DNA of 20,000 bases from Novakomyces olei. Lineage: Eukaryota. The DNA lies in the NCBI GenBank assembly GCA_016906335.1, contig JADEYG010000007.1, positions 2,601,055-2,621,054 of the forward strand, in the 5' to 3' direction. Below are positions 1-20,000 of this stretch, one piece after another. The position numbers were made by a program, and so were the translations under genes. The notes beneath the pieces are model-generated. The model made no database searches. It saw only the letters and a list, made by a program, of their open reading frames with translations, and had not been told where the DNA came from. Each line of letters starts with the position of its first letter. The first letter of the stretch is position 1.

Positions 1-1416
1 CAACCACAGAGGCAACTGTAGGAGATCCAGTCTCAGTTTGCCAAAATGTCTAAAGCACGAAAATTAGCCCAACTCCTTTAAGTCAAAAGCGACTCGAAAT
101 TAAGCTCCCTTACATCAGTCAATGGGACATTTTGTCTTCCGATAATATTAAAATACCAGGTCCAAGCGTCCGGCGAAATAGGTTCTCCAGCTGATCCTAA
201 CACCCTTAAAGACGGCATTTCAGGGATGGTAGCGTCGTCTTCAAATCGCTTGAGTAGTCTCAATGCCGTTGGAGCAGTATAAAAATGGGTAATTTGATAC
301 TTGTTGATTACATCCCAATATCGACTTCGAGTAGGGTAAATTGGTGTACTTTCAAACACCATAGTACAACATCCAAGAAGTAATGGAGCATACACCACAT
401 ATGTGTGTCCTGTAATCCAACCAACATCAGCTCCGCAAAACAATTTGTCGTATTCGTGAAGATCAAAAACATATTTGGCCGATACTGCAGCACCAAGTAA
501 ATATCCCGCTGTCGTGTGTATAAGACCTTTGGGTTTCCCGGTTGATCCGGACGTATATAGAAGAAAAAGAGGATCTTCTGAGTTCATTGGCTCTGGAGGG
601 AAATAAGCTGGGTGCTTTTCCAGCTCTTCATTCCACCAGAGATCTCGACCTGTCGTCCAAGGTGTCGTAACATTTTTTGATCGGTTGTAGACAATGACGT
701 TTTGAACACAGTTGCATTGCTCAATCGCCTGGTCCACAATCATTTTCAGTTTAGTTGATTTTCCTCCTCGAAAGCCTTCGTTTGCAGTAATGACCACGCG
801 AGAGTTGGAATCGAGAATGCGATCTCGAACAGACTCCGCCGAAAAGCCAGCAAAAACAACGGAATGGATGGCACCAATACGTGCGCATGCCAGCATAGAA
901 ATTATTGCGTTTGGAATCATGGGCATATATATTGTGACAACGTCGCCTTTCTTGACACCGAGAGCTTTGAGAGCCCAAGATAAACGACAAGTGTCTTCAA
1001 GTAACTCGCCATAGGTGATGACTCTGCCTTCATTGGGTTGATCAGCTTCATATATCATAGCTATTTTCTCCGGTGATTTGGCAGCATGTCGGTCGATACA
1101 ATTGTAGGATGCGTTCAGTTTCCCACCAGCAAACCAGGCACTATTGCCTTCAAGCAAAGAGCCGCTGTAGGTAGTATGAAAAGGCGTGTCAAATGAAAGC
1201 AAATCATTCGCCATTCGAGCCCAAAAATTATCGGGATGCATGATTGATTCATTGTAAAGCCTTCGATATTCATCCACTCCGCTGATATGAGGGGTTGAAG
1301 GGTGTTTCGAGCGGAAGGCCTCTGGCGTGAGAACCGAACGGCCAGCATTAGGCTCTTCCTAAGGCCATTAGGCGAATTGATCCAGATCAGTGCTCCTTTT
1401 CAAGCTGTCATACCAT
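1..1416 (-). CDS. acs: Acetyl-CoA synthetase (acetate-CoA ligase), 3'-truncated by the window edge. Exons 1416-1414 (ATG only), 1358-114, 49-<1; introns 1413-1359 and 113-50
   Basis: AMP-binding motif YTSGSTGKPKG, plus LACARIGAIHSVVFAGFS, ADVGWITGHTY and FYTAPTALR. Splicing out GTAAGG..CTAAT..TTTAG (113-50) restores the conserved DTFWQTETG. Upstream, GCCATG|GTATGA..CTAAT..CTTAG gives M|EEPNAGRSVLTPEAFRSKHPSTPHISGVDEYRR. Confidence 0.95.
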
Positions 1417-2668
1417 GGCGAGCCTTTACTGTTACAGTAATATGTGAGGATAGCTCCCGCGTGAAAAGACCTTACAGCCTTTCTAGCTGGGGTCCAGACA
1501 AAGGTTTGTACGTGTGCCTGGCTGACTCCCGGCCCGAAAATAAATCGGCGGATTCGGCCTATCGGATTTTACTAAATACTAAATTATCAGAAATAGAGCA
1601 CTGCTTGAAGTATTGCAAGTATTGCTGCTAAACATGGAAAAGGACCAAATAACTATCGTGACTTGGCATGAGCGGATATCCACACGTGTGCTGCATGCCA
1701 GTACAGTAAAAATTCGGTGGCATGTGGGTATATATGCCAGCGAATGTGCCAGATGCGCGTAACTACTGTCTCAAGTCGAGCAAGAAAACAGAAAGTCTAT
1801 CGTGTATCTATTGTGCAAGCTTAGGCGATAGCGTAGATAACCAAATTTACGCGATATCTTGGATAACCAAATCGGGCGCAAACCCAGTGAGAAAATCGCG
1901 AATAATTGGGCGCGTGCCTGCGACCTTGCTGTCATTTTATCGGATGTCGGTAACAATAATCGACTAGAGCACGAGAAAATTGCTTACCAACTGCCGGCTG
2001 GATTTCTGCGCGTCAAGCGAGTTTTTATTCATGACTATTTTGGACAAGTTCATTCGACATTTAGGAAACCCTATGCATTATATCCAAAAATTACGGTCGT
2101 TCAGATACTTGACTACTAAATACTAACCTCATCCTTGTATACAAATAACATTTATATCCTTTTCCTATCGATTGAATATGCTAGCCCCACTCTATTGACC
2201 ATGTCTTCACAATCACCGGTTCAGACTTAACCATATTGATTATTTATTATTTTATCTTGCATAAATACAAGATTTATTGGCCGAAGTCACCAGACTACAG
2301 TACAATTAATACTAAATAATTTATCATTATAATAATTTATAAGTGTAATTTACATAATAACATATACCAACTCCACTACCCACCACAAATATTGCACAGG
2401 CTGTATGGTCACTCTCCGTGTCCATATAGCCATATAACTCTAAGATGCTCCATAACTAACTTACAATCCATTTCAGCTTCTTGCCCTCATCCCGTTTCTT
2501 CGAAATCTGTCAGTTCCCTTCCATTCCCTCCTAATCCTTAACATCGTAGGATTCTCTCCCGATTAATAATATCTGCCGATTCTCTAGGGGTATAAAACTA
2601 ATTATAGGCCTTTCAGCTGAGGGTCTGACCGCCCAATGACCAACAGTCTCTTAGGCTTGAACGTTGTT

Positions 2669-4414
2669 TCAAAAGCTCCACAAAGCCAAATCAAAGGAAT
2701 CCCAAAATTCAGAATTCAGCGAGTTTATCTGATCATCTGAAAGCAGAGGTATGCCATTCACGATAGAAGACTGCGAGGCTCTATCGTGCAAAGAGATGTT
2801 AGTTTTCTCTCTTGAATCATTATCGCTCGGCATGCCGCACTCCTCAAGAGTGTCAGCTGCTGCGTCTTGGCCATTGCTTTTCTGGTGATCGATTTGCCAT
2901 TCGTCAACCATCCAGATCAACTCAAAAAAATGACTTGCACCGAGTCGCGACTGAAACCCGTTTTGTGACTTAAGAACATGTTCTAGTTGATTCGTTGCCA
3001 GCCAATGATTGATAGTCTCTATCACGCGTTTGGCCCGAAACCCTAGTAAGTTCCTCAGCGGATTTTCACGCTCAAAAAACCTATAGGCCTCTGAGATCGC
3101 GCTGTGCACGAAATCGAGGTCGACGAAAATGCTGTATTTTGAGAACAGTAACTTATAAAGAAACAAAGCACTGCTACCTACTGAATAGGTTGGCCAAAGT
3201 GGCCACGATTCGGTGCCGTATTTGCCTTGCATCTGCGTGGCCAAGCGTATTATTTCATGGCAAGTTTTGGAGGACGATAGCGATAGTTCTGCCAACAGGC
3301 TTTCGTTTAGTTCCGAAGCAGTAAATACCAATCCCGCCTCCTGCAGTGTAGCCGAGAGAAGCATCAGGCGCACAACGCAGGAAGTCTCTGCCTCTAGTTG
3401 GTCAGATGATAATTCGAATTCAGTGCGTAACGAAGTAAGCATAGATTGTAGAAGTTTGTGAGTGTGAAGCGATATTTTGACTTTTTCTGGGCTTGAGTTG
3501 TGAAGAATCTGCTCCTCGAGAACGAATTGGGTGTTCTGCTCTAATCTGCGAGCTATGGCGGCATACCAATACATGAGCTTTGGCACACCCGTAGCATCGC
3601 CTCTCGAAGCCAGAAACTTGAGAATGACAGGATCTTGGTTGACCGTGGGCGGGAATCCCTTAAAGCAGGCTACGTACTGATTAACCACGTAGCATGCTAT
3701 CCAGGTACAAAGGCGCTCACTTTCCACCGTCAACGAAACGTATCCGGGCGCCAAATATTCGTCCGGATAATTTGGCCGGTGCAGCCCAATGTTTTGCGCC
3801 AGATGAATGGCAGTCCCACAATAGATCCAAGAGAGATTACGTGAGCTCGTAAGCTTTGATGATTTCCATAAGGCAAGCAGGAGCAGAGCCTGTACAGCAA
3901 AAATAGCGGTCCTGTCTCTTTCTAGTGCCTCAAAAGACTCTTTAGCCGTAAGCCGTGTAATCGAAGCATCAATCTTCTGTCCGAGTTCAACTTCGGAGCA
4001 CTTGGCTGCTATCATACAGATGCTCCAGAACAAGAGCGGAGATTTCATAAAAAGCACCTTTGGCTCTGCATCACTCCTGACAATAGGCAGATATCTACTA
4101 GGACCTTCGAAGAAAATCTTGAAGAGATTGGAAGCGTCGGCCAGACTAAGGGCAACGTGCTCCAGAGAAAAAGCATCGTCAGAAAAGGGCGCAGACGAAT
4201 CTCTCTCTGCAAAGGCCCGGGCAGTACCATCTGGTAGAGCAAGAGGCTCTGCTGGTTGATAGCCTTGCACGTCATAGACGCACTCCAGTTTTCTTCGCCG
4301 GCACCGCAAGCATGGTTTTCCAGGATCTCTAATGCAGCGCATTTTGAGCTGCCTGCAGCGATTGCAGGCACTGTGTCGACTCTGTCGCCGAGGCTTTATC
4401 GCACGACCAGTCAT
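2669..4414 (-). CDS. Zn(II)2Cys6 binuclear-cluster transcription factor with fungal-specific middle homology region (~581 aa, apparently intronless)
   Basis: CNRCRQLKMRCIRDPGKPCLRCRRRKLEC has Gal4-type Cys6 spacing. SWIYCGTAIHLAQNIGLHRP is typical of the fungal TF middle domain, and the C-terminus is acidic/aromatic (EFWDSFDLALW). The first in-frame ATG is at 4414; the ORF track start at 4444 is TTG. Confidence 0.93.
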   Translation of the reverse strand: MTGRAIKPRRQSRHSACNRCRQLKMRCIRDPGKPCLRCRRRKLECVYDVQGYQPAEPLALPDGTARAFAERDSSAPFSDDAFSLEHVALSLADASNLFKIFFEGPSRYLPIVRSDAEPKVLFMKSPLLFWSICMIAAKCSEVELGQKIDASITRLTAKESFEALERDRTAIFAVQALLLLALWKSSKLTSSRNLSWIYCGTAIHLAQNIGLHRPNYPDEYLAPGYVSLTVESERLCTWIACYVVNQYVACFKGFPPTVNQDPVILKFLASRGDATGVPKLMYWYAAIARRLEQNTQFVLEEQILHNSSPEKVKISLHTHKLLQSMLTSLRTEFELSSDQLEAETSCVVRLMLLSATLQEAGLVFTASELNESLLAELSLSSSKTCHEIIRLATQMQGKYGTESWPLWPTYSVGSSALFLYKLLFSKYSIFVDLDFVHSAISEAYRFFERENPLRNLLGFRAKRVIETINHWLATNQLEHVLKSQNGFQSRLGASHFFELIWMVDEWQIDHQKSNGQDAAADTLEECGMPSDNDSREKTNISLHDRASQSSIVNGIPLLSDDQINSLNSEFWDSFDLALWSF

Positions 4415-5304
4415 GATAATTTGAAGACTGATGTTGAGCGTCAAAGATTGGGCCTGCTGGAATTAGATGGTCCTCTCCTGAAGCAATAGTACGACCGCAT
4501 CAAAAGCTATAATGCTGCTTTAGCACCATAGACTTCAGACAAGGCAGCGAGGTGGAGAAAATCCAACATTTGCCAGCTGTGCAAAGCAAAAATTTGATCC
4601 ACGGCCTAGTTCTACGATCCTATAATGCGCCGATCCGCCCAACACATATAGATCCTGTTGCAGAGTTGAGTTTTACAAGTCAGTAAATTAGCTTGAATGT
4701 CACCTAAATCTGAATCTATAGTTTTCTATCTAAATCACCAAATGTAGATCACCTGTTTATACTATGAAAACAACAAAGAACAAAGTGAGCAAAAAACAAG
4801 GTATTACTTAAGAACAAAGGACAAGGCCTTATCACAAGGAGCAAAGTGTCGTCCTTGTCCAAGGTCAGTATAGGAAGTAAGGCAGCATTCTCTTTGGGTA
4901 CGTATATTATACATTGTTAGGACCCAACCCAATATTTGATTTAAAAAACCCAGCTATCCAGGCCTTATCGAAATGGAACAAGGTAGCAGCGCGGCGCTAT
5001 TGCAATATAGGCGAAGCTATAGGATAACGGCGTCTTGAAGCAGTTATGGTTTCAAAGCACTGAGATTAATAGTACTATGGGCGAATGGGTCCCTATTTAT
5101 AGACAACGAGTGGTCGAGCAAATGCATCTCTCGTTCCCTTCCATACATATATTAGAAAATAGAACCCCCTGATCAATGGGGGTACCCACATACACACACA
5201 AGAAATACTAAACAAACTAAGCTTGTACAAACTGTTATAGAACCCAAACTTCATAAACTACCCGACCGTCGGCCGACGGGAGGAGCGTCTCCGCTTCTCC
5301 CCAA

Positions 5305-5340
5305 TTAGGTTTAGGGTTTGCTAGGGTTTGCTAGGGTTAG
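5305..5340 (+). repeat. Interstitial degenerate telomere-like repeats
   Basis: TTAGGTTTAGGGTTTGCTAGGGTTTGCTAGGGTTAG, containing 10-bp-period TAGGGTTTGC units in the same orientation as the terminal telomere. Confidence 0.65.
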
Positions 5341-5473
5341 TTTGGTAAACCCGGACCAGTTGAAGCAAGAACACACATATATAGCCTACATAGCCTATCA
5401 AAATATACTATCCCACTTAATACGAACTCCATCAGATCCAAATCATAATATGTCAAGCCCACGCTACGCTAAC

Positions 5474-5491
5474 CAGGGTTAGTTAGGGTTA
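5474..5491 (+). repeat. Interstitial telomeric repeat overlapping the hydrolase stop codon
   Basis: CAGGGTTAGTTAGGGTTA is an exact match to sequence in the terminal telomere tract. Confidence 0.7.
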
Positions 5492-6313
5492 AATATCACG
5501 GTCTTTAGCGTGCTTGTCGAAAAAGCTGGCAAAGTTGTCGAAGCCTTGTACAAATCGTTGCTGATGAACAGGGTCTTTTGGATCGTGCCGTGCCCCCATG
5601 AAACCGTGGGGAACATCGCCAAAAGTTTCTACCCGGCTGTCGCTGCCGCGTTTGGCAGACTTGAACTGGTTTGCAAACTCTGCTACTACAGCCTTGTCTT
5701 CGTCATGTGATGCCAGCAGATAGAAGGGGGCTTGCAGGTCTTTTGCATCGGCTGGATCCAGCAACCTATATTTTGTAAGTGTAAGCAGACTGATGCGAGT
5801 GGGCGGCCCGCACGGAGGCACTTACGACGGATGGCACACTGCGGCAGCGCGAACAGGCACATGAGGGTCATGCAAAAGTAAGGTAACCGGCTTTGCGCCC
5901 CAGCATGCACCATACAGGAATATTGGCGCCGTTGTAGTGCCAGCAATGTGCATTACAATTTCTCGCAATTTCTTTGTGCTCGCTTCGACGTTTGCACGGC
6001 CTTTAAGAAAGCTCATGATTGCATCGGTGCGCGGTCCCGGTTCCATCGCGCCTATGGCCTTCTCTTCTAGAGAATGGCCTTCGAAAAAGTCGGGCAGGTA
6101 GACCCGATATCCTTTTGCAGCAAGCGTGTCGACTCCTCTCAGAGTCTGCTCGTGGAAGCCAAAGATATCGTACACACCAACAGCGACGGGTGTGTCTTTT
6201 CCATCCCCACCGGATACATATGTCTCGAGTCCCGCAAAGGTTTCGTAAGTGCCCTGAGGCTTATAGTCGCTGGTCACTGCCGGCTCGCTGGACGTACAGC
6301 ACGGAGAAGTCAT
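5489..6313 (-). CDS. Dienelactone hydrolase family alpha/beta hydrolase, 254 aa. Exons 6313-5826 and 5765-5489; 60-bp intron 5825-5766
   Basis: N-terminal CC..P....Y.P.G, DIFG, PDFF, nucleophile elbow GACWG (Cys), ASHDED (Asp) and VPHGF (His). The GTAAGT..TATAG intron joins HPS to LLDPADA in frame (765 nt total). Confidence 0.93.
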
Positions 6314-6455
6314 GTCAAGGTTAATTTACAGCGCAATAGTTCTTGGATGGATGGTGTTTAATGGGAGCGTCAAGAAGGGCGTCTTTGGTCTCCGCTTAAA
6401 TGCTTTCCCGTAATGGCTCCATCGGAGCCGGAGCAAAGCCCAGTAAATCCGTAGG

Positions 6456-6571
6456 TCCGGCTGAGCAATCCGGCTGAGCAGTCCGGCTGAGCAGCTCGGT
6501 CGAAATGCTCGGTTGAACTTGTCCGGCTGACATCCGGTTGAGTGTCAGACGTCCGGCTGACATCCGGCTGA
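6456..6571. promoter_or_regulatory. Array of nine (TC/CT)CGGYYGA motifs in the divergent hydrolase/MFS promoter; candidate Zn2Cys6 binding sites
   Basis: TCCGGCTGA at 6456, 6469, 6482, 6522, 6552 and 6563. Variants CTCGGTCGA at 6495, CTCGGTTGA at 6508 and TCCGGTTGA at 6533. The repeat is seen directly; the function is inferred. Confidence 0.6.
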
Positions 6572-6685
6572 CACGACAGGCAAATTGTCGGAGCTTGAGC
6601 CCTGCCAGCTTCATAAAATGGACTCTATGGGGCACCCTGGTGCTTACTACAGGGCGGACTGACACTGGTAGCTGTGTCGCGAGTC

Positions 6686-8158
6686 ATGATTAAAGGCAAT
6701 GGATCTGGGGAAAAGAGTTCAGCCGCAGCTGGGGAAACGTATCCCGTGACAGACTGGGATAGTGGTATTGTTGCATGGGATAGTCAAGATGATCCGGAAA
6801 ACCCGCAGAATTTCAAAATGTGGCGCAAAGTACTGAATCTGGCTTTGCTTGTGGCGGCAACGTTTTGCTCGCCGTTTGCGTCGAGCTCATTTTCGCCCGG
6901 CGCAGGCGATGCTATGAGAGATTTTCACAACAATTCTGATATCTTGAGAGCGTTTATCGTGAGCGTCTACATCTTGGGCTATGCTGTGGGGCCGTTGGTT
7001 ATTGCGCCTCTATCAGAGCTGTATGGGCGCTGGATCGTCCTTTCCGTGTGTAATTCCATGTTCACCGTCTTTCAGATTGGATGTGCGTTGGCCCCAAACG
7101 TCACTGGTATGGCGTTTTGTCGCCTATTGACAGGTATCGGCGGCTCTGCTTGTATAACGTGTGGTGGAGGCATCGTCAGCGATATGTTTGGGCGCCACGA
7201 GCGTGGCCGCGTCATGGCTATCTACTCCTTTGGGCCCGTACTCGGGCCCTCCATCGGCCCTATTGCGGGGGGGTTCATTTCTACCAGAATTGGCTGGAGA
7301 TGGGGGTTTTGGATATTACTGATTGCCGGCTTTACCATAACCACGCTCAATGTTTGTTTCCTCAAGGAAACAAATGCAATGGTTTTGCTTGAGCGCAAGA
7401 CCAAGCGCTTGCGGCGCGAGACAAAACGGGACAATCTTGTCAATTATTATGTGCAAAAAAATTCTGCTATATCTCCCCAGCGCAAATTCAAACAGGCACT
7501 TCTGATGCCCATCAAGATATTAATGCAGCCGGTTGTTACGGCAGCCGCGTTGCATCTCGCTTTTGTCTACGGACTTTTTTACCTCCTTCTGACCTCCTTG
7601 TCTGAAATTTTCATCGAAAACTATCACTGGAAATTAGACATCGCGAATCTCTGCTTCGTTCCGCTTATGCTCGGCTTCATTCTCGGCGGAGTGTTTGTTG
7701 TAGCGTTTTCAGATGCATATTGCCGGAGATTGGCTCGCATCAATGGACACTTCCGTCCTGAATATAGACTCTTGTTTCTCATCTATAGCGAATTTACATT
7801 GCCGATAGGGTTCATTTGGTATGGGTGGACTGCATACAAAAAAGTGTTTTGGATTGTTCCTATGATCGGACTAGTACCTGTGGGCTACGGCACGCTGACT
7901 GCATTTGTCAGTACTCAGATGTATATAGTAGACGCTGTCCCGGCGTATGCTAGTAGTGGTTTGGCGGCAATCACAGTCACCCGCAGCCTTTTTGGTGCCC
8001 TTTTACCTCTTTGCGGTCACAAAATGTACCAATCTTTGTCATACGGCTGGGCCAGCACAATGCTAGGTCTGATTGCGCTTATTCTTTCGGCTACGCCTTA
8101 TGCATTTGCAATTTTTTTAAGGAGGCATGATGCAACATTGGTCGAAAATGGTATTTGA
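6686..8158 (+). CDS. Major facilitator superfamily transporter, drug:H+ antiporter 1 (DHA1)-like, ~490 aa
   Basis: WDSQDDPENPQNFKMWRK, GPLVIAPLSELYGR, ERGRVMAIYSFGPVLGPSIGPIAGG and PEYRL motifs, with about 12 hydrophobic segments. First in-frame ATG is at 6686. Confidence 0.93.
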   Translation: MIKGNGSGEKSSAAAGETYPVTDWDSGIVAWDSQDDPENPQNFKMWRKVLNLALLVAATFCSPFASSSFSPGAGDAMRDFHNNSDILRAFIVSVYILGYAVGPLVIAPLSELYGRWIVLSVCNSMFTVFQIGCALAPNVTGMAFCRLLTGIGGSACITCGGGIVSDMFGRHERGRVMAIYSFGPVLGPSIGPIAGGFISTRIGWRWGFWILLIAGFTITTLNVCFLKETNAMVLLERKTKRLRRETKRDNLVNYYVQKNSAISPQRKFKQALLMPIKILMQPVVTAAALHLAFVYGLFYLLLTSLSEIFIENYHWKLDIANLCFVPLMLGFILGGVFVVAFSDAYCRRLARINGHFRPEYRLLFLIYSEFTLPIGFIWYGWTAYKKVFWIVPMIGLVPVGYGTLTAFVSTQMYIVDAVPAYASSGLAAITVTRSLFGALLPLCGHKMYQSLSYGWASTMLGLIALILSATPYAFAIFLRRHDATLVENGI

Positions 8159-8879
8159 AGGAGCAATTCGGGTTCCTCAGCTAGAAATGCTAGTGGGGTT
8201 ACAGAGAAAGCTAATCAAACCATTTTACAGGTTGCAATATGAACACTAGATACAGAAAATACTGGCGCAGCGAGCCCAATTATCCCGAATTCTGATAGAC
8301 GTTGATCAAAGCTTGGCTCCCGGAAACTACCAGCATTATTCTGACGGGGGCACGCTTAAATGAATACGTCTTTTAGAATATTAATTATATGCTGGCGCTA
8401 ATGCAATAGTTCATGTCTTTCCTTTCTCATCTGCGCTGTAAGCTGCCCTTGAGAGACGTCATGAGTCTGAAGGCCACACTCATGTGAAAACATGTTGGCT
8501 TCTGCCATCACTAGTTGCCATATGGTCATGATAAAGAAGCGGGAATAGGCGCTACTATTCTGCATAAGAGTCACTACGAATGGCATCAGGGATTACAACG
8601 GGCAAGCTTGTAGGCGGGATCATACTGGCGCGATTGTTTGGCTGTGAGCATTGACTAGATAGATCAAAGATGGACTGCATCTTTGATCATGCTTGATTGC
8701 CCTTGGCTTTTTGCTTGTCCCGACCTTCTAAAATAACTTCAGACCAGGAAAAGAATCACAAGGTATTCGGTTTCTGCCGCCCTTATTCGCTCCGTCTACC
8801 TTCGGATAAAGCTTCCGAGCTCGTAAATACTCAGACAATTCGTTGTTGAGTAGTCACTTATTACCCTCGAGGGCCATGA

Positions 8880-9560
8880 AAGCATTATTTAATCGATTCC
8901 TGTGGGTCACATATTTTCGTTTTGCTTGCCTGGTAGAACCGCTGAACAAGTAGACAAAAGCGGAAATATAGCAAGAACGAGAGACGGGGAAGCGGGGTAA
9001 AAACCCAATTTGTCAATTACTCCTTTTATGTAACCGGAAGTTGGTCAGACTGCCCAAACTATATCACTCTGGAAGGATTTTGTCAAAGTTAGATGTGTAG
9101 ACGAAGAAATGTATAAGATGCTCCTGAGGACGCGATTATGCTCCTCGATTCGTGTCATTGCTGCTGTTCTATGTGTCTTGCAACGACGACTATTCATTCT
9201 CAAGTTCGATCTGTGTAGACAAGCGTTGACTTAATTGGTATGGCCTGTCAAGCCATCGCTCGGTGCTATGATTTTTTTTGGTAGCATAGAGCCAAGGAAA
9301 GGTTGAGTAAAGAAGGTAAAAATAATTTAGACCTCTATTTCCATCGTCCATGTAGAAAAAATTATCTCCAATTCACCGTTTCGTCTACTTTTGAGGCTCA
9401 AGGGTTGGCTTGTCCCAGCGGGACGGTGTTACACTCAGCAATAAGATTTTCCAGCTTCTCCCTAATCCTTCGCACCACAAACTCAAAATTGACGCTCTTT
9501 CTATTCATCGATATTTCGTCGGGTCGGCTACCTTTTAACGTGAACTTTTCCAGTTTAATA
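8880..9560 (-). pseudogene. Possible decayed protein-coding gene of unknown family
   Basis: Manual minus-strand translation gives protein-like stretches separated by single stops or frameshifts (MNRKSVNFEFVVRRIREKLENLIAECN...*ASKVDETVNWR*FFYMDDGNRGLNYFYLLYSTFPWLY...). No family motif recognised; boundaries approximate. Confidence 0.3.
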
Positions 9561-9583
9561 TATGGGCAATGTACTAGTGCGTT

Positions 9584-9606
9584 CTGACATTTCGCCGAAA
9601 TATCAG
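9584..9606. repeat. Palindrome, third copy of the motif found in the 37-bp inverted repeats
   Basis: CTGACATTTCG-C-CGAAATATCAG, 11-bp arms with one mismatch. Confidence 0.85.
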
Positions 9607-9665
9607 TTATAGGGTTTTCTTGATTTTTAGACTGCAATTATTATACAAAACAATATATACTAACT

Positions 9666-9702
9666 GACATTTCGTCGAAATGTCGCTAGTAATAATAACT
9701 AG
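9666..9702 (+). repeat. Left 37-bp inverted repeat (19-bp palindrome plus AT-rich tail ending CTAG)
   Basis: GACATTTCGTCGAAATGTCGCTAGTAATAATAACTAG is 33/37 identical to the reverse complement of 16176-16212. Confidence 0.9.
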
Positions 9703-9868
9703 GATCCTACGTTTAGTGCAGCGTCACGTCCTAAGGATCAAAAGTAATAATGCTGGATCTTATTTAGAGCCAATATGTTAAAATATTTACAAAAATCAAT
9801 ATGCGATTATGAAATTTTGACCTTGGCTTCACCCTCGACGAACCCTGGCAAAACTGTGGACTCTGGGG

Positions 9869-10663
9869 ATGAAGAGCAATACAAGCGAGCTAAGTGCGAT
9901 AAGCTGGGGCGCTGAGGGGATTGCAACCCTTGTTTCAAAAGATGGAGCCACAATAGCGGCGGTTCCGATTCAGTTCACAAATGCAGACCCTCATCCCGTC
10001 AACACAGCAGCTTACCTGTACGATGTTGCGCGGCGGTTGATATCCAACTTTAAAGTGGAGGATATCATTCAGCGGGGTGGGAGCACCGTTAACCCGCAAG
10101 ATCCGCTTACTTCTGGCATATACGCGGTGGATATGCTATTAGACAATATTGAACATCGTCCCGGTCCACAAGGGAAGTCGTACCACAAACGATTTTCTGA
10201 TGCGGATAGTTCATCAACTGTCAGCCGGTCGTCGCGTTCGTCTCAAGCGCAGACGTACTTTCGCGAGGATCTTCTTTTGCGTGATGGACGTTGCGTCTTC
10301 ACAGAAGCCAGAGGGCGTACCGCTGTTGTTGCGTGCCACATTGTTCCCTACAGTCTCGGCGACACGTACCTTTCGGAAATACTGGGAAACCAACAGTTCT
10401 CTGGTATTTACTCTTCTTCGAACGGACTGCTCATGAGGAGGGATATCCATTTCTGTTACGACAGATATCTCCTAGGGTTCTATCGGATTGCGCCAAATGT
10501 ATACGTTATTCATTCCTTTGGGACGGGCTACCGTGAACTTCACGGAAAAATCGTGGATTTTAACATCGAGCCCGGCGATCCTTCTATACCACCTAATGAA
10601 ACACTCATGGCTTGGCACTATTCTCAATGTCTTATGGCAAGGATGCGTCCGTTTGTGGTTTAA
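9869..10663 (+). CDS. HNH endonuclease-domain protein (fungal HNH_2-like), 264 aa
   Basis: FREDLLLRDGRCVFT..ACHIVPYS..NGLLMRRDIHFCYDRYLLGF..LMAWHYSQC matches the fungal HNH pattern with H, N and H present. A short N-terminal domain and Ser/Arg-rich linker precede it. Confidence 0.88.
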   Translation: MKSNTSELSAISWGAEGIATLVSKDGATIAAVPIQFTNADPHPVNTAAYLYDVARRLISNFKVEDIIQRGGSTVNPQDPLTSGIYAVDMLLDNIEHRPGPQGKSYHKRFSDADSSSTVSRSSRSSQAQTYFREDLLLRDGRCVFTEARGRTAVVACHIVPYSLGDTYLSEILGNQQFSGIYSSSNGLLMRRDIHFCYDRYLLGFYRIAPNVYVIHSFGTGYRELHGKIVDFNIEPGDPSIPPNETLMAWHYSQCLMARMRPFVV

Positions 10664-11195
10664 TGAGCGGGTGCGATTCGTGCTTCGACCCTGTTGGACA
10701 ATTCAACAGTATATTCTCATCCCAGGGCTCACTATTATGAGGAAGCTTTATGTTTTTAATGAAGCCTGGGTTTATGGGTATTCTACCCTATGTCTTATAA
10801 TCGAAGACTGTGTAATCTTCTAGGGTTTCAAATGACCCTGCGGTGGGCTCTTTGGCCAAATTTTCGCCAATTTTTGATGCAGGTTTGTCGCTGCGCAGAT
10901 TAAAAAGGCATGCCGACAAGCTGCTTATCCGGCTGCAAGTTCGGCATGTACGTCCTACTGAAAGAGCCATTCATGTGGGCTGCTGGGGTACTGAGCTTCT
11001 TATTGGTGACGGGCACGATTGCCTCACAACTACTCTGCTGCTCCCGCTTGTGTCAAAGGACTCAGACATCAGCGCGCGCAGGTCGCCGCCCTCCCTGTAT
11101 GCCAACAGCAGCTTTTATGCCGATGTGCTGTTTTGTGCAGTAATGCGATCAGTGCCGGAACCACATCAACGCTCGCCGTAAAGTCATAATATCAG

Positions 11196-11786
11196 ATGCG
11201 ATTCTGCAGCGCCCTGCACGACCCATACTTTCATACTCTGCGCGTGGACTCTGTTACGCGAGCAATCAGCATAGACAGCGAAGCAGTAGCGCTTTTCATT
11301 GGTGTAAATTTAACATTCTCCCAGATAGCAGATGATTTATGGGATTTTGGTACAGTGCGTAATGGAAACACTGCACAAAGTCCCGTAAAGCCTACACCTG
11401 CCCTTGAACTTGATGATGAGTTGGATCCTACAGTGCTGCAACACCTGCAGATTTCCGAGAATACCACAATCAAGCCTGCACGCACCGAGCCGCCAAAAGC
11501 TACCGACGCTTTAAATAGGACAATGACGGTTACTGGCTTGAATAAGGGAAAAGATACCAATGAAAGTAAACCTAAAGTTGCTGAACAGACAAGTGACGAC
11601 TGGCTATCGCTGTCAGAATCAACTTTTCATTTAGATAAGCGCGACCGTCTGCTCGAGACACTAAAGCGCCTGCGGCAAAGTGAGGACGCAAAAGTTTTGC
11701 ACGCTGCTCAATTGCTTGCTGATGCCATAACTGCAAGTGAAAAGGAGTGCCCCGATATTTTAACGCGTTTGCTCCACGATGTATAG
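11196..11786 (+). CDS. Hypothetical protein (196 aa or more; may have an upstream exon via a possible intron at 11140-11195)
   Basis: ATG-started ORF with natural composition: globular N-part, P/T/E/K-rich linker and helical C-terminus. A possible GTAATG..CAG 56-bp phase-0 intron would join it to the 10843-11181 frame. No family recognised. Confidence 0.55.
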   Translation: MRFCSALHDPYFHTLRVDSVTRAISIDSEAVALFIGVNLTFSQIADDLWDFGTVRNGNTAQSPVKPTPALELDDELDPTVLQHLQISENTTIKPARTEPPKATDALNRTMTVTGLNKGKDTNESKPKVAEQTSDDWLSLSESTFHLDKRDRLLETLKRLRQSEDAKVLHAAQLLADAITASEKECPDILTRLLHDV

Positions 11787-12210
11787 AGAGGTTCAACATC
11801 CAGGTGAGATTGTGGCCTTTTTATCGAGATTTATGTTCCATTCGCCTGTGATTATTTGTAGTTTGTTCAAGAGTGGATTGTAGAACGTGGAGGTTTTGAC
11901 GAGATCAATTTGGCCGTTTGCACGCCGTCTCACCGTATTAGTTGAAATCTTTATGGCCAAACTGTAATAGATTACATAACGTATCAAAATGTGCAGCTCA
12001 ATCGTGCAGTCATCGAAGCGATTACTAAACAAGCACAACAAGTGTCTCATGAGCACCTTGCATTATTTGGACAACAAAAGATTTCGTCTCTTGATTTTGG
12101 TAGGCAAAGTAACGATGCCGTCTCACGTGCGCAACCTTCATGGATAAACTGTAAAACTCGTGCATAAACGAAAATATTAATAGTTTAAAAAGATGCATTC
12201 TATCGTGTTC

Positions 12211-12240
12211 ATTGCAGACTGTTGGATTGCAGACTGTTGG
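12211..12240. repeat. Perfect 15-bp tandem duplication
   Basis: ATTGCAGACTGTTGG x2. Confidence 0.9.
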
Positions 12241-13414
12241 AAATAATCAAAATAATACTAAGGATTGATCTACGTTTAGTGATTTAAATAGAAAACTATA
12301 TAAGTACAGGTAGCACCTAGATTCAAATTTAGATGGCATTCAAGCTAATTCACTGCTTATAAAACACAACTTTCCAACACAAACTAATAGGATGCAACAC
12401 GCTTTAAATACGTGCAAATAACTGCATGGCCTCTACTCGAAACTGTAATTTGAATGTCAAATAATCCATTCATGCACACATGCTGTAATTAATTACCAAG
12501 CCCATGCTAACAAGCAATTCATATTTACGCGTGACAGGCAACCTTGCTTCCATTAATTTTGGATACCACAGGTTTGTTTGTGGAAGAGCGTTTTTATGAG
12601 AGGAATTCTGGTCTACAGCCATGCTTTCAGCTGCTGTGCCCGATGAGCAGCTTTTTGTTATTGAGCAACATGGTTTGGTCGAATTGTTGGAGAGCTCGGA
12701 ATAGCCATAATTTAATCCTTCATATTGACTCAAAGCACTTGGGATGTAAGTGCATACATCACATGGCGGCTGTTTCCTGTATCAAGGTTCCAGGCACCAA
12801 TGTTTTGCCTCGCGCTATGCGCATAAGAATCGGGTATGAGATAAAAGTTGCCTTCCTTGTCCCAGCCTCATAAATCAGCCAGTCCACCTGAACAGTGGCA
12901 GGTCAAAACGATGGACGGAAGCCGGCACTCGAACGCAACCCACTCATACTTATTTCTTTCGGCTAAAGCCACATTCCAGCCAACACGCCATTCCAACAAA
13001 TAATACTGTATCAGTCACGACTTCCCCTTACTTTCGACATATTTCTTGCCAGCTATCGTCGCCATGTCACCGCCACTGCCACAGCTATTTCTATATTACT
13101 CCAGCGCTCATACAGTCCCTTCGCCACTGGTGCTGCCATGCGACGGAGTTGGAATCGCCAGCAATAACTGGAATTGTGGAGGCAGGAACTCCGTCAAAAA
13201 ATATTACTTGATTTCTGTCCGTTCAATACGCGAGGCTCTTGAATGCTCATGATGGGTTGTATCGCTATTGGTGAACTAATGGAATCAAAATAAAAACGCC
13301 AACAATATGCTAAACAAAATGCAATTTAAATATGCTCAATAATATGCCATAACTATGCCAGACTTTAAAGCCTGGACGAAAATGAAAGGGTATTATACAT
13401 CACTGGCCCCCGGC

Positions 13415-16116
13415 CTACTTGACCCTTCTTGCCTTTTTCTTCGGGACTCCCTGGCCTTCATGAATTTCTTCGTCCTCCTGACCACCCTGATTCCCATGGT
13501 CTCTACGATTTTCATATTCTCTCTGGAATTTATAGCTGCCATAGGCTTCGTGGCCTCTCTGTCCCCATGGATCTCGTAACCTCAGTGACCTCCGTGGCCC
13601 TTCTGGCTTCCCTGCCTCCTGGCCTCCCTGGCTGACCTGATTGACCTGGCCTCCCTGGAGTTCACCGCCTCCTTGGACCCCCTTTCGTTGCAGATTTTCC
13701 AGCCGCTCCACTTCGCTGCTCAATATATTGAGAATTTTGTCATACAATTCTTCACCTTGTTCGATACGTACGCCTCTTGAATCTTTCATGAACAATGCAA
13801 TGCGAAGCTTTTCCATGCATCCCATCAAAGGCTTATGGTCATTAGTGAAATTTTCCGACATTTCGCGCATAAAAATATCGGGATTCTCAACGATTTTTGA
13901 TTTATACGCCGAGACCTTTGACATACTGGCATAGTTCCAATCATCATACGGAGAATTCTGATTAATAGGCTGTCCATTTTGGAAATAGTGAGTCAAAATC
14001 CAGTAAGCCACCCAAAAGTGCGACTCAATGTCGTGCATCATGGTATGATCTTCTCCGTCTAGTAAAGGTATCGCCATAAACGGCCTCGTTCCTGTTCTCT
14101 CCATCGCGCCTGACAGACCAGCTTGGCTGATCCTGATCGCAAACTCAAGATCAATAAGAAATGCCCGCCGAGACCCTGGATTTTCAGACCCCTCATTCAT
14201 CATCAAGTTCCCGATCGAAATGTCCCGGTGCAGAATATCATTCTTCACAAGCGACCGGTGGCCCTCAAGACATCCCATTATCCCTTTCAGTAGCTCTATG
14301 TGTGAACTTGCCTTGTACAATGGCTTCCCGTAGTCCAACACAACGACTCGTCGATGGACTCGGTTTTTGATTTTCGCATCCAAAGAATCAATCTGCTTTG
14401 CTGGCGACGACTCTCCGGACCTCTCCTCCGCATTCTCCTCTATATTCCATAATGGAGATTTCGCTGACCGAGTACTGCTTCGCCGCATGTCAAGTGCTGA
14501 AGTGCCCGATCCGGTCGATCCTCTCGACCATCTTGCTCCAAGATCCGGAATTGCCTTTTTTAGAGCTCCGGTCATGTCTAATCCATTCCGCACATTGCTC
14601 ATAAGATCGTCTTCCTTGCCATCAATGTGAACCACCTCATGGTGATAATATCGCGAAATATTCTCGACACCACGAGTACCCGCTAGCTTAAGCAGCTCCC
14701 CTTCTTCCCTTCGCTCCGGCTCCTGCCACGAGTCTTTGATCACTCTGACTGCGCTCTTATCCCCTTCTCGGTGCGCCAGCCATACCGTCGTGCCTCTGCA
14801 CGCAATTCCGCTCGAAGTCTTCAACACTTTGTCAATTATAAGTCGCTCACGCGTCCGCCCTAGTTTAATATCGATATATCTATCTTTCTCTCTACTGACA
14901 ATTGTCGGATCGTAACCCAGCTCTTTCTCTCCCATCGTAAGGAAAAACAGCATCACGTAGACTATCAGGCCTGTTGCTTTGTTGATGTCGAATGCTTTTG
15001 ATGCTATCGCCCCACATCGATCATATTTCCACACCCTCATCGACGAGTCGCAAAGCGTAAATCCCAAAACATATCGACGGTTATCCTGCGCTCGAAATAT
15101 TTCCTTTATATACTTTGCAAGGCCAAGCCATGCTTGTGCAGGGCTATCGGCCTTACGACTGCTTTTTAGCTCTCCCACAACCAAGACGTTGTTCCATTGT
15201 TTATCAGCATTTCGCTTTATGAAGAAAATGTCAGGTTTGCGTGCGAACTTTCCAGGGAGAGGTTTATTCGCCGCAGACATTGTAGTTCGCCGCACCTCTG
15301 TGCCTTTAATTCGCTTGTAAATGTTGCTTATTTGCGTTACAAAACTCTTGAGCCAATCTAGCACCGCTGCCTCCTTCGCTGATTTGGGCCAATCCTTCAA
15401 TTTACCGTTTTTGAAGAGTAAGTTTTCTTGGTTTGCCTCTTTAACCACTCTCGCCGATAGTTTATTGAGCGATTTTTTCTGAGTGGACAAAATATCCTCC
15501 ACCTCAAAGTTGATATAGAAAAATTTAAGTTCAGCTTTGATTTGCTCTTCGACCTCTATTGATCGTTCGCTAGAATTGTACGCAATAGAATTAATATTGA
15601 GTGGCGTCCCAGGAGCTTGTTTTGGTGGCTCTTCCTTCGTTTGGCTTTGAGCTTGCCTTAATCGCTCGACCTTCCTTTGGCTTTCCGCTACAACATCGTT
15701 CAGTTTCTCCCAAATCTCTAAGTCGTTATCATGTTTAAATGCAGCCGTCAGGACTGGGGCAATGTCATGATAGTAAAGCCGGATATCAGAGGCAATGTCG
15801 TTAACTAGTTCACTTATAGCAGGTTGAACATCCTCCGCCACAGCACTCAACTGCGGAAGCAAGATTCTAGCCAGCCTAAAATAGTCTATAGATGTTAGGC
15901 ATAAAGAAAAATCGACGAGACCCAATCGTTACCTTTTTCATGGAGCAAAAGGGCATTATACTGTCCTGAAGGGTCTCTATAGCCTGCTTTGTCAATCCGA
16001 CGTAAACTTTCGTAAAAGTAATATAAATGCGGTGTAAAGGGATTATCGTTAAGCATTCGTCGAATTCCATCGTTTATCTCGACCGCACCGGGCTCTGGCC
16101 TTAAAGGTTCCGCCAT
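13415..16116 (-). CDS. Fungal-type protein kinase (FunK1/Sgk2, Pkinase_fungal family) with PD-(D/E)xK-like N-terminal region, ~884 aa. Exons 16116-15933 and 15885-13415; 47-bp intron 15932-15886
   Basis: RKPDIFF..WNNVLVVGELK..LAKYIKEIFRAQDNRRYVLGFTL..WKYDRCG, then CRGTTVW, VIKDSWQ, NRVHRRVV, ILHRDISIGNLM, LIDLEFA, RTGTRPFMA and HDIESHFWV. The GTAACG..CTAAC..TATAG intron joins MAEPLRPE...LLHEK to DYFRLAR in frame (2655 nt). Confidence 0.92.
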
Positions 16117-16175
16117 CGCCGCTGCGGTCAAGGTGGGAACGCGACTCGAGCCAATGAATGCATGTTGGATATACA

Positions 16176-16212
16176 CTAGCTATTATTAGTAGTGACATTT
16201 CGACGAAAAGTC
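16176..16212 (-). repeat. Right 37-bp inverted repeat
   Basis: CTAGCTATTATTAGTAGTGACATTTCGACGAAAAGTC; its reverse complement matches 9666-9702 at 33/37. Confidence 0.9.
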
Positions 16213-16285
16213 GTATTATTGCATAGAATGCTTCTTGTTTTGTGAAAAGATATATTAAAGATTATTTCTGCCAGCATTTATAACA

Positions 16286-16323
16286 GTTAGTGTTAGGGTT
16301 ATGTAACTAACCCTAACCCTAAC
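16286..16323. repeat. Head-to-head interstitial telomeric repeats
   Basis: GTTAGTGTTAGGGTTATG is immediately followed by TAACTAACCCTAACCCTAAC. Confidence 0.8.
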
Positions 16324-16481
16324 TTATTCTGGCTTACTAGATATATTCAAACCGGAATTATGGCGAAATTCCATTTTTATGTAATGTGATTCTTATTATG
16401 TATAATTCTAGTCAGGGTTTTCGCTTTTCCTTTACGCCATAATTCCATTTCGAAAAATAATTAATGTATGAGGGGGGGGTC

Positions 16482-16635
16482 ATGCCAATTTCCTTAGCAT
16501 TCCCGCGAATTATGGCGTAATTCTAATAAGAATGGTAGGAGAAACGTGGAGGCAGGGTTTTTTAGGGAGAATTTTCCGACTAAATTCCAAATTATAATAT
16601 GGGAAATTGCGCGGGAATGCTAAGGAAATTGGCAT
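16482..16635. repeat. 154-bp segment with perfect 26-bp terminal inverted repeats (MITE-like), copy 1
   Basis: ATGCCAATTTCCTTAGCATTCCCGCG at 16482-16507 and its exact reverse complement at 16610-16635. Confidence 0.85.
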
Positions 16636-17064
16636 AAACGGGGGTAAGAACGACGTAAGAGCAAAAATAGTTTCCGCCTTAATTCCAAAACATTGGCAAA
16701 CCATATTGCGGCGAGGGTAGGGTTGCTGAATTTATAAAATATAATTATTATACAAGATGGTCTACACATATTATAGCTATCTGATAATATAATAAAAATA
16801 TTATAGAGAGAGCCCCATAGTAATAAAGTATAATAAGAAAAACGTCAGAAAAATAAGAAAAATTAAGAGTGTGTAGTCCATGTGTAGAGGTGACAAAACG
16901 TCGAATGAACAAGTGTTTTTACAAAAAGTGTATGGTTGGATAGAGGGGTGCAGTAGGAGTGTAAATATATACTTGTTTACAAGATTGGATTAGTAATTAT
17001 GGAGATATATGGGTTTAAAGATTTATAAAAAGCTCATGACGGCGCAGGATGCATTTTATGTGGC

Positions 17065-17710
17065 ATTATAATAATGTATAGTAGAATAATTTATTGTAAA
17101 GCAATGTATGTATAATAATGTATAGTATAATAATGTATGGTAATTTAATGTATAGGAATAATGTATGTATAATAATGTATGGTATAATAATGTATGGTAT
17201 AATAATATATGGTAGAATAATGTATTGTAAAGTTATTGTAAAGTAATGTATGTATAATAATGTATGGAGGAATAATGTATGGAGGAATAATGTATGTATA
17301 ATAATGTGTGGTATAATAATATATGGTAAAATAATGTATTGTAAAGTGAATAATGTATGTATAATAATGTATGGTATAATAATGTATTGTAAAGTAAAGT
17401 ATGTATAATAATGTATGGTAAATAATATATGGTAGAATAATGTATTGTAAAGTTATTGTAAAGTAATGTATGTATAATAATATATGGTAGAATCATATGG
17501 TATAATAATATATGGCATTATAATGTATGGTATAATAATATATGGTGGAATAATGTATGGAGGAATAATGTATGTATAATAATGTATGGTATAATAATAT
17601 ATGGGGGATTAATGTATGGGAATAATGTATGGGGAATTAATGTATGGGGGATTAATGTATGGAGAATAATGTGTATGGGGGAATAATGTATGGGGGAATA
17701 ATGTACGGTG
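17065..17710. repeat. AT-rich minisatellite, 14-15-bp unit (consensus ATAATAATGTATGGT)
   Basis: Dozens of variant copies (ATAATAATGTATGT, GAATAATGTATGGAG, ATAATGTATTGTAAAGT). Confidence 0.92.
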
Positions 17711-18203
17711 ATATTTATTTAGGGTTAGGGTTATTTATGATCGAATGGAGTAGAGAATTATATTGAGATTGTTGGATATGAAAGGGAGGGAGAGAGTTGG
17801 AGTTGAGATAGGAAGTAAAGGGAAATAGAAAATGGGAATAGAGTAATGTAGAAGTTGCCAAAAAAATGTTTGATAAAGGACAGTTATTGAAAGGAAGATT
17901 GTTTTAATATTATTTAGTATTTTATAATATTTGGTTAAAGTTTAGAAAGGATCAAATAAAAATGATGATGTAAAAGTTTTAAAAGGGCGGAAAATGTGAA
18001 TAATAATAGATTGAAGGGGTGTGAGGGGATGTGGAAAAGTGATGGGAGATGTTAGGCCTAGATATATTCAAGACGGAATTATGGCGAAATTCCATTTTTA
18101 TGTAATGTGATTCTTATTATGTATAATTCTAGTCAGGGTTTTCGCTTTTCCTTTACGCCACAATTCCATTTCGAAAAATAATTAATGTATGAGGGGGGGG
18201 GTC

Positions 18204-18357
18204 ATGCCAATTTCCTTAGCATTCCCGCGAATTATGGCGTAATTCTAATAAGAATGGTAGGAGAAACGTGGAGGCAGGGTTTTTTAGGGAGAATTTTCCG
18301 ACTAAATTCCAAATTATAATATGGGAAATTGCGCGGGAATGCTAAGGAAATTGGCAT
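18204..18357. repeat. 154-bp segment with 26-bp inverted repeats, copy 2
   Basis: Same arms at 18204-18229 and 18332-18357. Confidence 0.85.
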
Positions 18358-18782
18358 AAACGGGGGTAAGAACGACGTAAGAGCAAAAATAGTTTCCGCC
18401 TTAATTCCAAAACATTGGCCATATTGCGGCGAGGGTAGGGTTGCTGAATTTATAAAATATAATTATTATACAAGATGGTCTACACATATTATAGCTATCT
18501 GATAATATAATAAAAATATTATAGAGAGAGCCCCATAGTAATAAAGTATAATAAGAAAAACGTGAGAAAAATAAGAAAAATTAAGAGTGTGTAGTCCATG
18601 TGTAGAGGTGACAAAACGTCGAATGAACAAGTGTTTTTACAAAAAGTGTATGGTTGGATAGAGGGGAGCCGTAGGAGTGTAAATATATATTTGTTTACAA
18701 GATTGGATTAGTAATTATGGAGATATATGGGTTTAAAGATTTATAAAAAGCTCATGACGGCGCAGGATGCATTTTATGTGGC

Positions 18783-19435
18783 ATTATAATAATGTATAGT
18801 AGAATAATTTATTGTAAAGCAATGTATGTATAATAATGTATAGTATAATAATGTATGGTAATTTAATGTATAGGAATAATGTATGTATAATAATGTATGG
18901 TATAATAATGTATGGAGGAATAATGTATGTATAATAATGTGTGGTATAATAATATATGGTAAAATAATGTATTGTAAAGTGAATAATGTATGTATAATAA
19001 TGTATGGTATAATAATGTATTGTAAAGTGAATAATGTATGTATAATAATGTATGGTATAATAATGTATGGTAGAATAATATATGGCATTATAATGTATGG
19101 TATTATAATATATGGTAGAATAATGTATGGAGGAATAATGTAAAGAGGAATAATGTATGTATAATAATGTATGGTATAATAATATATGGCATTATAATGT
19201 ATTGTAAAGTAATGTATGTATAATAATGTATGGTATAATAATATATGGTAGAATAATGTATGGAGGAATAATGTATGGAAGAATAATGTATGGAAGAATA
19301 ATGTATGGATGAATAATGTATGGGGATAATGTATGGTGTTAATATATAGTATTAATGTATGGGGGCATAATATGAGAGTTGTTCAGTTAGGGTTAGGGTT
19401 ATTTATTGGGATAATGTATGGGGTATTATAATGTA
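18783..19435. repeat. AT-rich minisatellite, copy 2
   Basis: Same 14-15-bp ATAATAATGTATGGT family with a different order of variants. Confidence 0.92.
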
Positions 19436-19835
19436 TGAGTTAGTTGTTTTATTAGGGTTAGGGTTATTTATCATGGAGTGGAGTAGAGAAATTTGTTGAG
19501 ATTGTTGGATAAAGGAAAGGATGGAGAGAGTTGGAGTTGAGATGGGAAATAGAAGTAGAAAATGGGAATAGATTTATGTAGATTTTGGCAAAAAAAGGTT
19601 GAAAAAGGAGAGTAGTTGAAAGAAAGATTGTGATAATATTGTATAGTATGATATAGAATTGTATGTTAGATTATAAAGGGATCAAGCATAATTAAAGATA
19701 TGAAAGATAAAAAAAGGCAGAGAATGAGAATAATAATTGATTGAAGTGGTGTGGGGGATGGTGAAAAGAGATGGGAGATGAAGAAAGACAGATTTTGGAA
19801 GAGTTGAGGGAAGTATATGGAAGTTGATGGAGATT

Positions 19836-20000
19836 GTCAGGGTTAGGGTTAGTCAGGGTTAGTTAGGGTTAGTTAGGTTAGGTTATGTCAGGGTTAGTGT
19901 TAGGGTTAGTTAGGGTTAGTTAGGGTTAGTTAGGGTTAGTCAGGGTTAGTTAGGGTTAGTTAGGGTTAGTTAGGGTTAGTTAGGGTTAGTTAGGGTTAGT
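19836..20000 (+). repeat. Telomeric tract, 10-bp unit TAGGGTTAGT with CAGGGTTAGT and shorter variants
   Basis: 19901-20000 is ten consecutive 10-mers (nine TAGGGTTAGT, one CAGGGTTAGT at 19941). Degenerate units lie proximally, and the G-rich strand runs towards the window end. Confidence 0.95.

Follow-up and report, generated by a model that had tools for sequence, protein, structure and literature searches.

HNH nuclease and FunK1 kinase genes and a short double-hairpin repeat in a probable subtelomeric mosaic at a chromosome end of Novakomyces olei

The window analyzed here is a stretch of 20,000 nucleotides (nt) from the genome of Novakomyces olei (GenBank assembly GCA_016906335.1, contig JADEYG010000007.1, positions 2,601,055 to 2,621,054 of the forward strand), and all coordinates below are positions within it. 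Toward its right end lies a 6.5-kb block, 9666-16212, which begins and ends with copies of a 37-nt sequence in inverted orientation and contains a gene for an HNH nuclease, an orphan open reading frame (ORF) and a gene of the FunK1 kinase family. A preliminary description of the sequence proposed that the block is a mobile or selfish cassette bounded by its repeats or, alternatively, two separately inserted gene units with a common 5′ terminus. The evidence presented here points, with moderate confidence, to a different origin: the block is probably the outermost gene-containing part of a fungal chromosome end, a mosaic of subtelomeric segmental duplications in which a short palindromic repeat is dispersed.

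The arms of the inverted repeat occupy 9666-9702 and 16176-16212 and are complementary at 33 of 37 positions (89%). A comparison of the window with itself by blastn returns this pair with E = 3.6e-7, and the similarity between the arms ends at the edges of both 37-mers. The HNH and FunK1 genes that lie within the arms both look intact and both read inward. The start codon of the HNH gene at 9869 is 166 nt inside the left arm, and the candidate start codon of the FunK1 gene at 16116 is 59 nt inside the right arm. Directly outside the arms there is no target-site duplication, the bases being ...CTAACT before the left arm and GTATTA... after the right arm. The only match is obtained when the outer palindromic 19 nt of the arms are themselves re-read as a duplicated target (17/19). 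The positions and flanks agree with the preliminary description, which had placed the two start codons about 165 and 60 nt inside sharply ending repeats and had seen no target-site duplication.

In form, the 37-nt arms with their 33 matching positions correspond to the terminal inverted repeats (TIRs) of a DNA transposon. The proteins that would move such an element were also looked for. A Pfam search of 102 frames, comprising all stop-to-stop frames of at least 45 amino acids (aa) in 1118-2763, 4238-5952 and 7957-16261 as well as the large ORFs, found no transposase, recombinase or Rep-helicase domain, in agreement with the preliminary description, which had seen no DDE transposase, tyrosine recombinase or Rep-helicase. 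Starships are giant transposons that carry a tyrosine-recombinase captain at one end and exceed 20 kb. No captain was found among the 102 frames of the 20-kb window, which is smaller than a Starship. In addition, the window has no match in Rfam and no tRNA, and a scan for bacterial promoters and terminators gave no site with models that are bacterial for a host that is fungal.

The HNH gene (9869-10663, forward strand) encodes a protein of 264 aa that matches Pfam HNH_2 (PF13391) with E 2.3e-12 and 47 bits against a cut-off of 21. It belongs to a family of proteins of about 260-280 aa that is conserved over its full length, with 199 cluster representatives at E <= 0.001 and 12 at E <= 1e-30. 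HNH_2 is matched in all 29 aligned family members, and H157, H215 and H225 are invariant in these 29 sequences. The ten closest relatives all come from run assemblies or metagenomes. The protein is predicted to consist of a ubiquitin-like domain at the N-terminus and an HNH domain, joined by a Ser-rich linker, according to an alignment-based structure model (pLDDT 88.6) that was used in place of a single-sequence model (pLDDT 34.5).

TagI and VcaM4I are modification-dependent HNH restriction endonucleases. The HNH domains of both superpose on residues ~111-262 of the model, that of TagI (6ghs) with Z 10.3 and rmsd 3.9 over 114 aligned residues, and that of VcaM4I (6yex) with Z 10.1 and rmsd 3.3 over 123 aligned residues. 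The family profile also retrieves VcaM4I by sequence, with E 0.0064. The C-terminal domain of the HNH protein is therefore predicted to resemble the HNH domains of these enzymes. However, sequence identity is only 17-20%, and the N-terminal domain of TagI and VcaM4I reads modified bases, while that of the HNH protein is predicted to be ubiquitin-like. Residues ~15-93 of the model match many ubiquitin-like chains with Z 6-7 and a Foldseek probability of ~1 but an E of only ~0.01. A Z below 8 can reflect a common arrangement, and the ubiquitin-like match is a middling one.

At the opposite end of the block, the FunK1 gene (13415-16116, reverse strand) has its main frame at 15928-13415. This frame matches Pfam Pkinase_fungal (PF17667) with E 2.1e-126 and 422 bits against a cut-off of 24.1, and covers profile positions 2-386 of 387. 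It is 40% identical to a homologue of 787 aa over 716 residues, with no stop or frameshift. Among 8000 candidates scored, 1638 are relatives at E <= 0.001, and those among the matches listed are mostly ~44-48% identical and come from many Pezizomycotina. Reading along the reverse strand, the long frame has no ATG before 15280, and the N-terminus of a homologue maps to 15817-15512, which means that FunK1 must start in an exon farther upstream. A first exon probably begins with the ATG at 16116, whose position fits. A PD...ELK stretch ahead of the kinase core is conserved with a homologue and may represent a restriction-endonuclease motif.

Between the two genes, the orphan ORF (11196-11786, forward strand) could encode 196 aa. 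It has no Pfam family and no relative among proteins of 108-347 aa, and it straddles a boundary in copy number at 11349 (see below), so that it is probably not a single conserved gene.

To the right of the block, the window runs into the end of a chromosome. An array of telomere repeats occupies 19822-20000, with the G-rich strand reading toward the window end, and two tandem telomere-associated units of 1.72 kb precede it (16337-18057 and 18058-19780). The block thus adjoins both telomere-associated repeats and a telomere, as a subtelomeric mosaic does. Between the right 37-mer and the first unit, 72 nt from the 37-mer, the repeat search found a telomere-like palindrome at 16284-16324 (GTTAGGGTTA ... 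TAACCCTAACCCTAAC), in which repeats of the G-strand type are joined to repeats of the C-strand type. A second interstitial telomere-like tract lies at 5300-5359, in the same strand orientation as the terminal array. Both tracts may mark former chromosome ends or fusion points.

The number of copies in which the parts of the block occur was estimated from contigs of four public sequencing runs (X1-X4) aligned to 1-17040. X1 and X2, which come from different studies, cover the region well. X3 and X4 are thin (21/30 and 2/30 bins, respectively), and holes in them are not evidence of absence. The main reliance is on the k-mer depth of single contigs, since summed bin depth is not equal to copy number. 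The region up to 8000 is present once and provides the single-copy reference, which is 1124.5 in X2 (5326-8029) and 3.7-5.3 in X1.

From 8000 to 11349 the depth is about twice this reference. In X2 it is 2185.6 over 8000-9404 and 2184.4 over 9668-11349, and in X1 it is 8.33 over 8000-9693 and 8.55 over 9669-11349. This 2x segment extends from the 3′ end of a gene for a major facilitator superfamily (MFS) transporter across the left repeat and the HNH gene into the orphan ORF. Its left boundary, at 8000-8029, falls within the 3′ end of the MFS ORF (6686-8158), 1.67 kb before the left repeat is reached, so the second locus should carry a fragment of the MFS gene. Next comes a high-depth repeated segment at 11361-12496, also recognized by the repeat search, where the X2 bins are 10434 and 9122 against 1125 (~9x, as summed bin depth). 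The FunK1 part is at 3-4x, with 4364 (14219-14787) and 3374.9 (15562-16244) in X2 and 14.5 (13188-16134) in X1. Finally, beyond ~16250 the summed bin depth rises to 50-135x. X1 and X2 agree in these ratios. At two positions of the 2x segment the contigs of the runs also depart from the window, with C for T at 8727 in X2 and G for A at 11271 in X1, X2 and X3. These departures could stem from strain variation, from divergence of the two copies or from an error in assembly.

In a transposon bounded by TIRs, the unit that is copied is the unit between the repeats. Here, the depth along the block changes from 2x to ~9x to 3-4x, and since the HNH part and the FunK1 part are unequal in copy number, the block is not the copied unit. 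Instead, the boundaries of duplication lie at 8000, at 11349 and beyond 16244, and none of them coincides with a repeat. Segments of differing copy number with arbitrary boundaries, as expected of a subtelomeric mosaic, are found in both X1 and X2. Moreover, contigs run across the right repeat in X2 (15562-16244) and in X3 (16052-16855, with 0 differences), and the latter continues into the telomere-associated unit. A contig that joins 9665 to 16213, as an empty site would, is not among the four joints found in the four runs, of which only two cover the region well.

The 37-mer is itself composite. It consists of two adjacent hairpins, H1 and H2, where H1 is the 19-nt palindrome GACATTTCG-N-CGAAATGTC and H2 is CTAGT-AATAATA-ACTAG. 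In the left copy, H1 (9666-9684) is followed by H2 (9686-9702) in the direction of the HNH gene, and in the right copy, on the reverse strand, H1 (16194-16212) is followed by H2 (16176-16192) in the direction of FunK1. Because H1 is palindromic, the outer 19 nt of the arms can equally be called a direct or an inverted repeat. A third copy of the H1 core lies at 9586-9604, which brings the sites in the window to 3 against 0.01 expected, whereas H2 is confined to the two 37-mers. The third core and 9661-9684 form a 24-nt inverted repeat with a 51-nt spacer (DNA fold z = -4.56). Symmetry arguments from a degenerate likeness to H2 beyond each H1 were dropped, since the sequence there is AT-rich and indistinguishable from chance.

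Copies of the motif also occur elsewhere in the genome. At position 9663, contigs that carry G instead of A hold a depth of 7472 out of 9379 in X2 and 25.4 out of 33.8 in X1, which corresponds to ~5-7 further single-copy-equivalent loci with a 37-mer of the left type. By k-mer depth, there are roughly ten copies of the double-hairpin repeat per genome. Consistent with other sequence contexts, two X2 contigs agree with the window from 9657 on and differ before it. Another X2 contig (depth 3762, ~3x; its shorter side is 32 nt) follows the window to 9703 and then switches to the opposite strand at 16757, a position within the telomere-associated unit. This joint places the motif beside the chromosome-end repeat as well, without the HNH and FunK1 genes. 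Beyond this genome, a metagenome collection had 0 matches to a pattern of 33 positions built on the 37-mer, 29 of them specified bases.

Taken together, these observations are best explained if the 37-mers belong to the repertoire of chromosome-end repeats of this organism, as copies of a short double-hairpin repeat, and if the block is a subtelomeric mosaic. The block would have been assembled from separately duplicated subtelomeric segments, which may have spread between chromosome ends by ectopic recombination or break-induced replication. One 37-mer would have come with the HNH gene, upstream of it in the 2x segment, and the other with FunK1, upstream of it in a 3-4x segment that reaches the telomere-associated repeats. 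The inverted repeat would then have arisen when two units, each led by the motif, were set head to head. The hairpin-forming motif might lie at or near the breakpoints of such rearrangements, or might additionally be a shared upstream regulatory site.

The second proposal of the preliminary description, that of two separate gene units with a common 5′ terminus, survives in part. The two genes do differ in copy number, and the motif does lie upstream of each of them and is directed at each. However, it terminates neither duplicated segment, and it occurs elsewhere without these genes.

Several points weigh against a subtelomeric mosaic as the full account. The copy numbers, those of the motif included, rest on contig k-mer depth. 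The contigs of the 2x segment break exactly at the motif, at 9669-9693, as a repeated word would lead one to expect; that the second copy of 8000-11349 is contiguous across the motif is suggested by the equal depth on either side. The joint 9703/16757 is found in one of the four runs only. The sequence beside the left repeat, 9610-9648, shows a weak likeness to 16717-16755 in the telomere-associated unit (score 31), but this is within the range of 200 shuffles (mean 18.7, sd 2.4, max 34) and carries little weight. Finally, the two 37-mers face their neighboring genes in the same way, with distances of 166 and 59 nt to the start codons. Pure breakpoint debris does not predict this, while a regulatory site or the terminus of an element does. 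The 37-mer may mark rearrangement junctions, be a shared upstream regulatory palindrome or be the end of a small non-autonomous element.

If the motif is regulatory, the 37-mer would be a candidate cis-regulatory palindrome, a site for a dimeric factor that is common to the promoters or 5′ leaders of subtelomeric genes, and the inverted repeat would amount to two convergent genes under one control. This is compatible with a mosaic, and it accounts for the position and direction of both copies relative to the adjacent gene. The 19-nt palindromic core is a frequent form of dimer binding sites. In the X2 junction described above, moreover, the ATG of a small reverse-strand ORF (16694) lies ~63 nt past the motif, a similar spacing. 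However, nothing supports this 63-aa ORF of the telomere-associated unit as a gene, the third core at 9586 has no gene beside it, and the motif is absent from the other genes of the window. On balance, a regulatory origin of the repeat is unlikely, even though it fares best among the alternatives.

The 37-mers could instead be termini of small non-autonomous transposons, either Helitron-like or miniature inverted-repeat transposable elements (MITEs) such as the 99-nt unit 9586-9684, inserted independently near both genes. Such elements would lie outside or at the edge of the supposed cassette and would not bound it. In each 37-mer, CTAG stands 14 nt after a hairpin, at the point where the similarity of the arms stops, and the motif is dispersed (the ~5-7 further single-copy equivalents) with flanks that differ. 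According to PMC5148889, the canonical Helitron hairpin is 10-12 nt from a 3′ CTRR, and fungal Helitron2 elements have hairpins at both termini. The unit 9586-9684 also has its 24-nt inverted ends. Against this, no 5′ TC end was identified, CTAG is followed by G in the left copy and by T in the right copy, which is inconsistent with an A|T insertion site, and the first CTAG-like word of the right copy is CTAC. The 102 frames contain no Rep/helicase, which a non-autonomous copy would lack in any case, and the metagenome collection contains no match to the pattern. These inconsistencies make a small transposon a doubtful explanation, somewhat more so than a regulatory site.

The cassette of the preliminary description would be a 6.5-kb non-autonomous mobile or selfish element with 37-nt TIRs, whose mobility would come from factors supplied in trans or from the HNH or nuclease-kinase protein that it encodes. 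In its favor, the inverted repeat is genuine and significant, the genes within it are directed inward, and both products are of nuclease or conflict type. In addition, if H1 is taken as a duplicated target of 19 nt (17/19) and H2 as a terminal repeat of 18 nt, the layout formally resembles TIRs with a site duplication. Such an element, if it existed, would represent a novel type in eukaryotes, mobilized by nucleases and not by a transposase. Nevertheless, the unequal depths with boundaries off the repeats, the contigs that cross the right repeat into the telomere-associated repeat, and the presence of H1-H2 beside telomere-associated sequence without these genes all speak against it, as do the missing transposase and the lack of an empty site among the four joints. 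In metagenomes, across 20 loci with HNH relatives, none has a relative of FunK1 or of the orphan ORF, and none has the core motif, which says little because these relatives are distant (23-38% identity) and 11 of the 20 loci are under 5 kb. A repeat-bounded mobile cassette is thus very improbable. A composite version, in which H2 is an 18-nt TIR, H1 a 19-nt palindromic target duplicated on insertion (17/19) and perhaps cut, in a homing-like way, by what might be the HNH or nuclease-kinase protein of the cassette itself, and 9685-16193 a non-autonomous cassette with two Crinkler-like nuclease genes that entered the telomere-associated repeat and was later partly re-duplicated, is the least probable of all, as the mosaic of depths weighs against it and leaves it only the form of an old insertion followed by segmental duplication.

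The evidence therefore favors ordinary chromosome-end dynamics, in which conflict-type families such as FunK1 kinases and HNH nucleases are amplified in a fungal subtelomere. Two smaller leads are the short double-hairpin repeat, which recurs at segment junctions and upstream of genes, and the conserved family of ~260-280 aa with its predicted ubiquitin-like domain and its HNH domain.

Subtelomeric mosaics are well known from yeast, where X and Y' elements form arrays of repeats with internal telomere tracts, and where subtelomeric gene families are duplicated. The present block resembles them in that it adjoins telomere-associated repeats and a telomere, has segments of differing copy number and lineage-specific gene families, and is accompanied by the interstitial telomere-like tracts at 5300-5359 and 16284-16324. 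It differs in that the repeat units and the 37-nt double hairpin are specific to the organism, and in that the genes encode an HNH_2 nuclease and a FunK1 kinase and not helicases. Helitron termini (PMC5148889) share with the 37-mer the hairpin followed by CTAG where similarity ends and a dispersed distribution with variable flanks, and differ from it in the Rep/helicase, the 5′ TC end and the consistent insertion site.

The HNH and FunK1 genes look like members of lineage-specific families of the Crinkler-like conflict type. Crinkler or CR proteins combine a ubiquitin-like header with an enzymatic C-terminus, and versions with HNH and with REase-kinase domains exist (PMC5289972, section 11). 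The Crinkler-like nature that the preliminary description gave to both proteins is compatible with the predicted layout of the HNH protein, in which a ubiquitin-like domain precedes an HNH nuclease domain, with that review and with the PD...ELK stretch ahead of the FunK1 kinase core. It is weakened by the middling ubiquitin-like match and by the LxLFLAK motif (as defined in PMC5289972), which is not seen when the N-terminus of the HNH protein is read. An animal Crinkler-like gene that adjoins hAT elements is the subject of PMC12957317.

With regard to FunK1, PMC3203195 reports that its genes are enriched in non-syntenic regions and have expanded by lineage-specific duplication, and PMC6001611 reports an expansion on lineage-specific chromosomes. 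No paper coupling FunK1 with the term subtelomeric was found in the literature, and a bioRxiv preprint on host-specific subtelomeres has nothing on kinases, HNH or inverted repeats. Among the metagenome loci with HNH genes, the paralogous loci L002/L004 and L006 have ~1 kb in common at 80%, i.e., the gene alone.

To the left of the block, the window contains ordinary genes, identified by Pfam as those of an acetyl-CoA synthetase, a Zn2Cys6 factor, a dienelactone hydrolase and the MFS transporter mentioned above. At the other end, tandem-repeat analysis describes 19842-20000 as 15.2 copies of the 10-nt unit GTTAGGGTTA with 88% matches, and not as a simple TTAGGG hexamer. GGGTTA units in pure form, as well as variants (GTCAGGGTTA), are interspersed in the terminal array. 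The two telomere-associated units are 98-100% alike in their unique parts. Each contains a 15-bp AT-rich minisatellite (~44 and 39 copies) and a perfect inverted repeat whose 26-nt arms are 102 nt apart (16482-16507/16610-16635 and 18204-18229/18332-18357).

Other repeats of the window are multi-copy as well. A second inverted repeat, 4656-4751 / 12266-12379, is 73% identical over 115 nt and belongs to a multi-copy family with a depth of ~5-9x, its right arm being part of the high-depth segment 11361-12496; contigs in X1, X2 and X3 join 4705 to 12325 on opposite strands. One X2 contig, whose shorter side is 30 nt, jumps over 6890 nt from 5344 to 12235 and also returns from 5348 to 5304. It was rejected as a deletion allele, because both ends of the joint lie in repeats (the telomere-like tract and a 15-nt tandem repeat), and it is read as another locus of these repeats. 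Finally, a repeat of ~75 nt at 2208-2283, in an AT-rich stretch, has a depth of ~4.7x, and contigs of X1, X2 and X3 diverge from the window at its edges, with loose ends before 2208/2233 and behind 2283.

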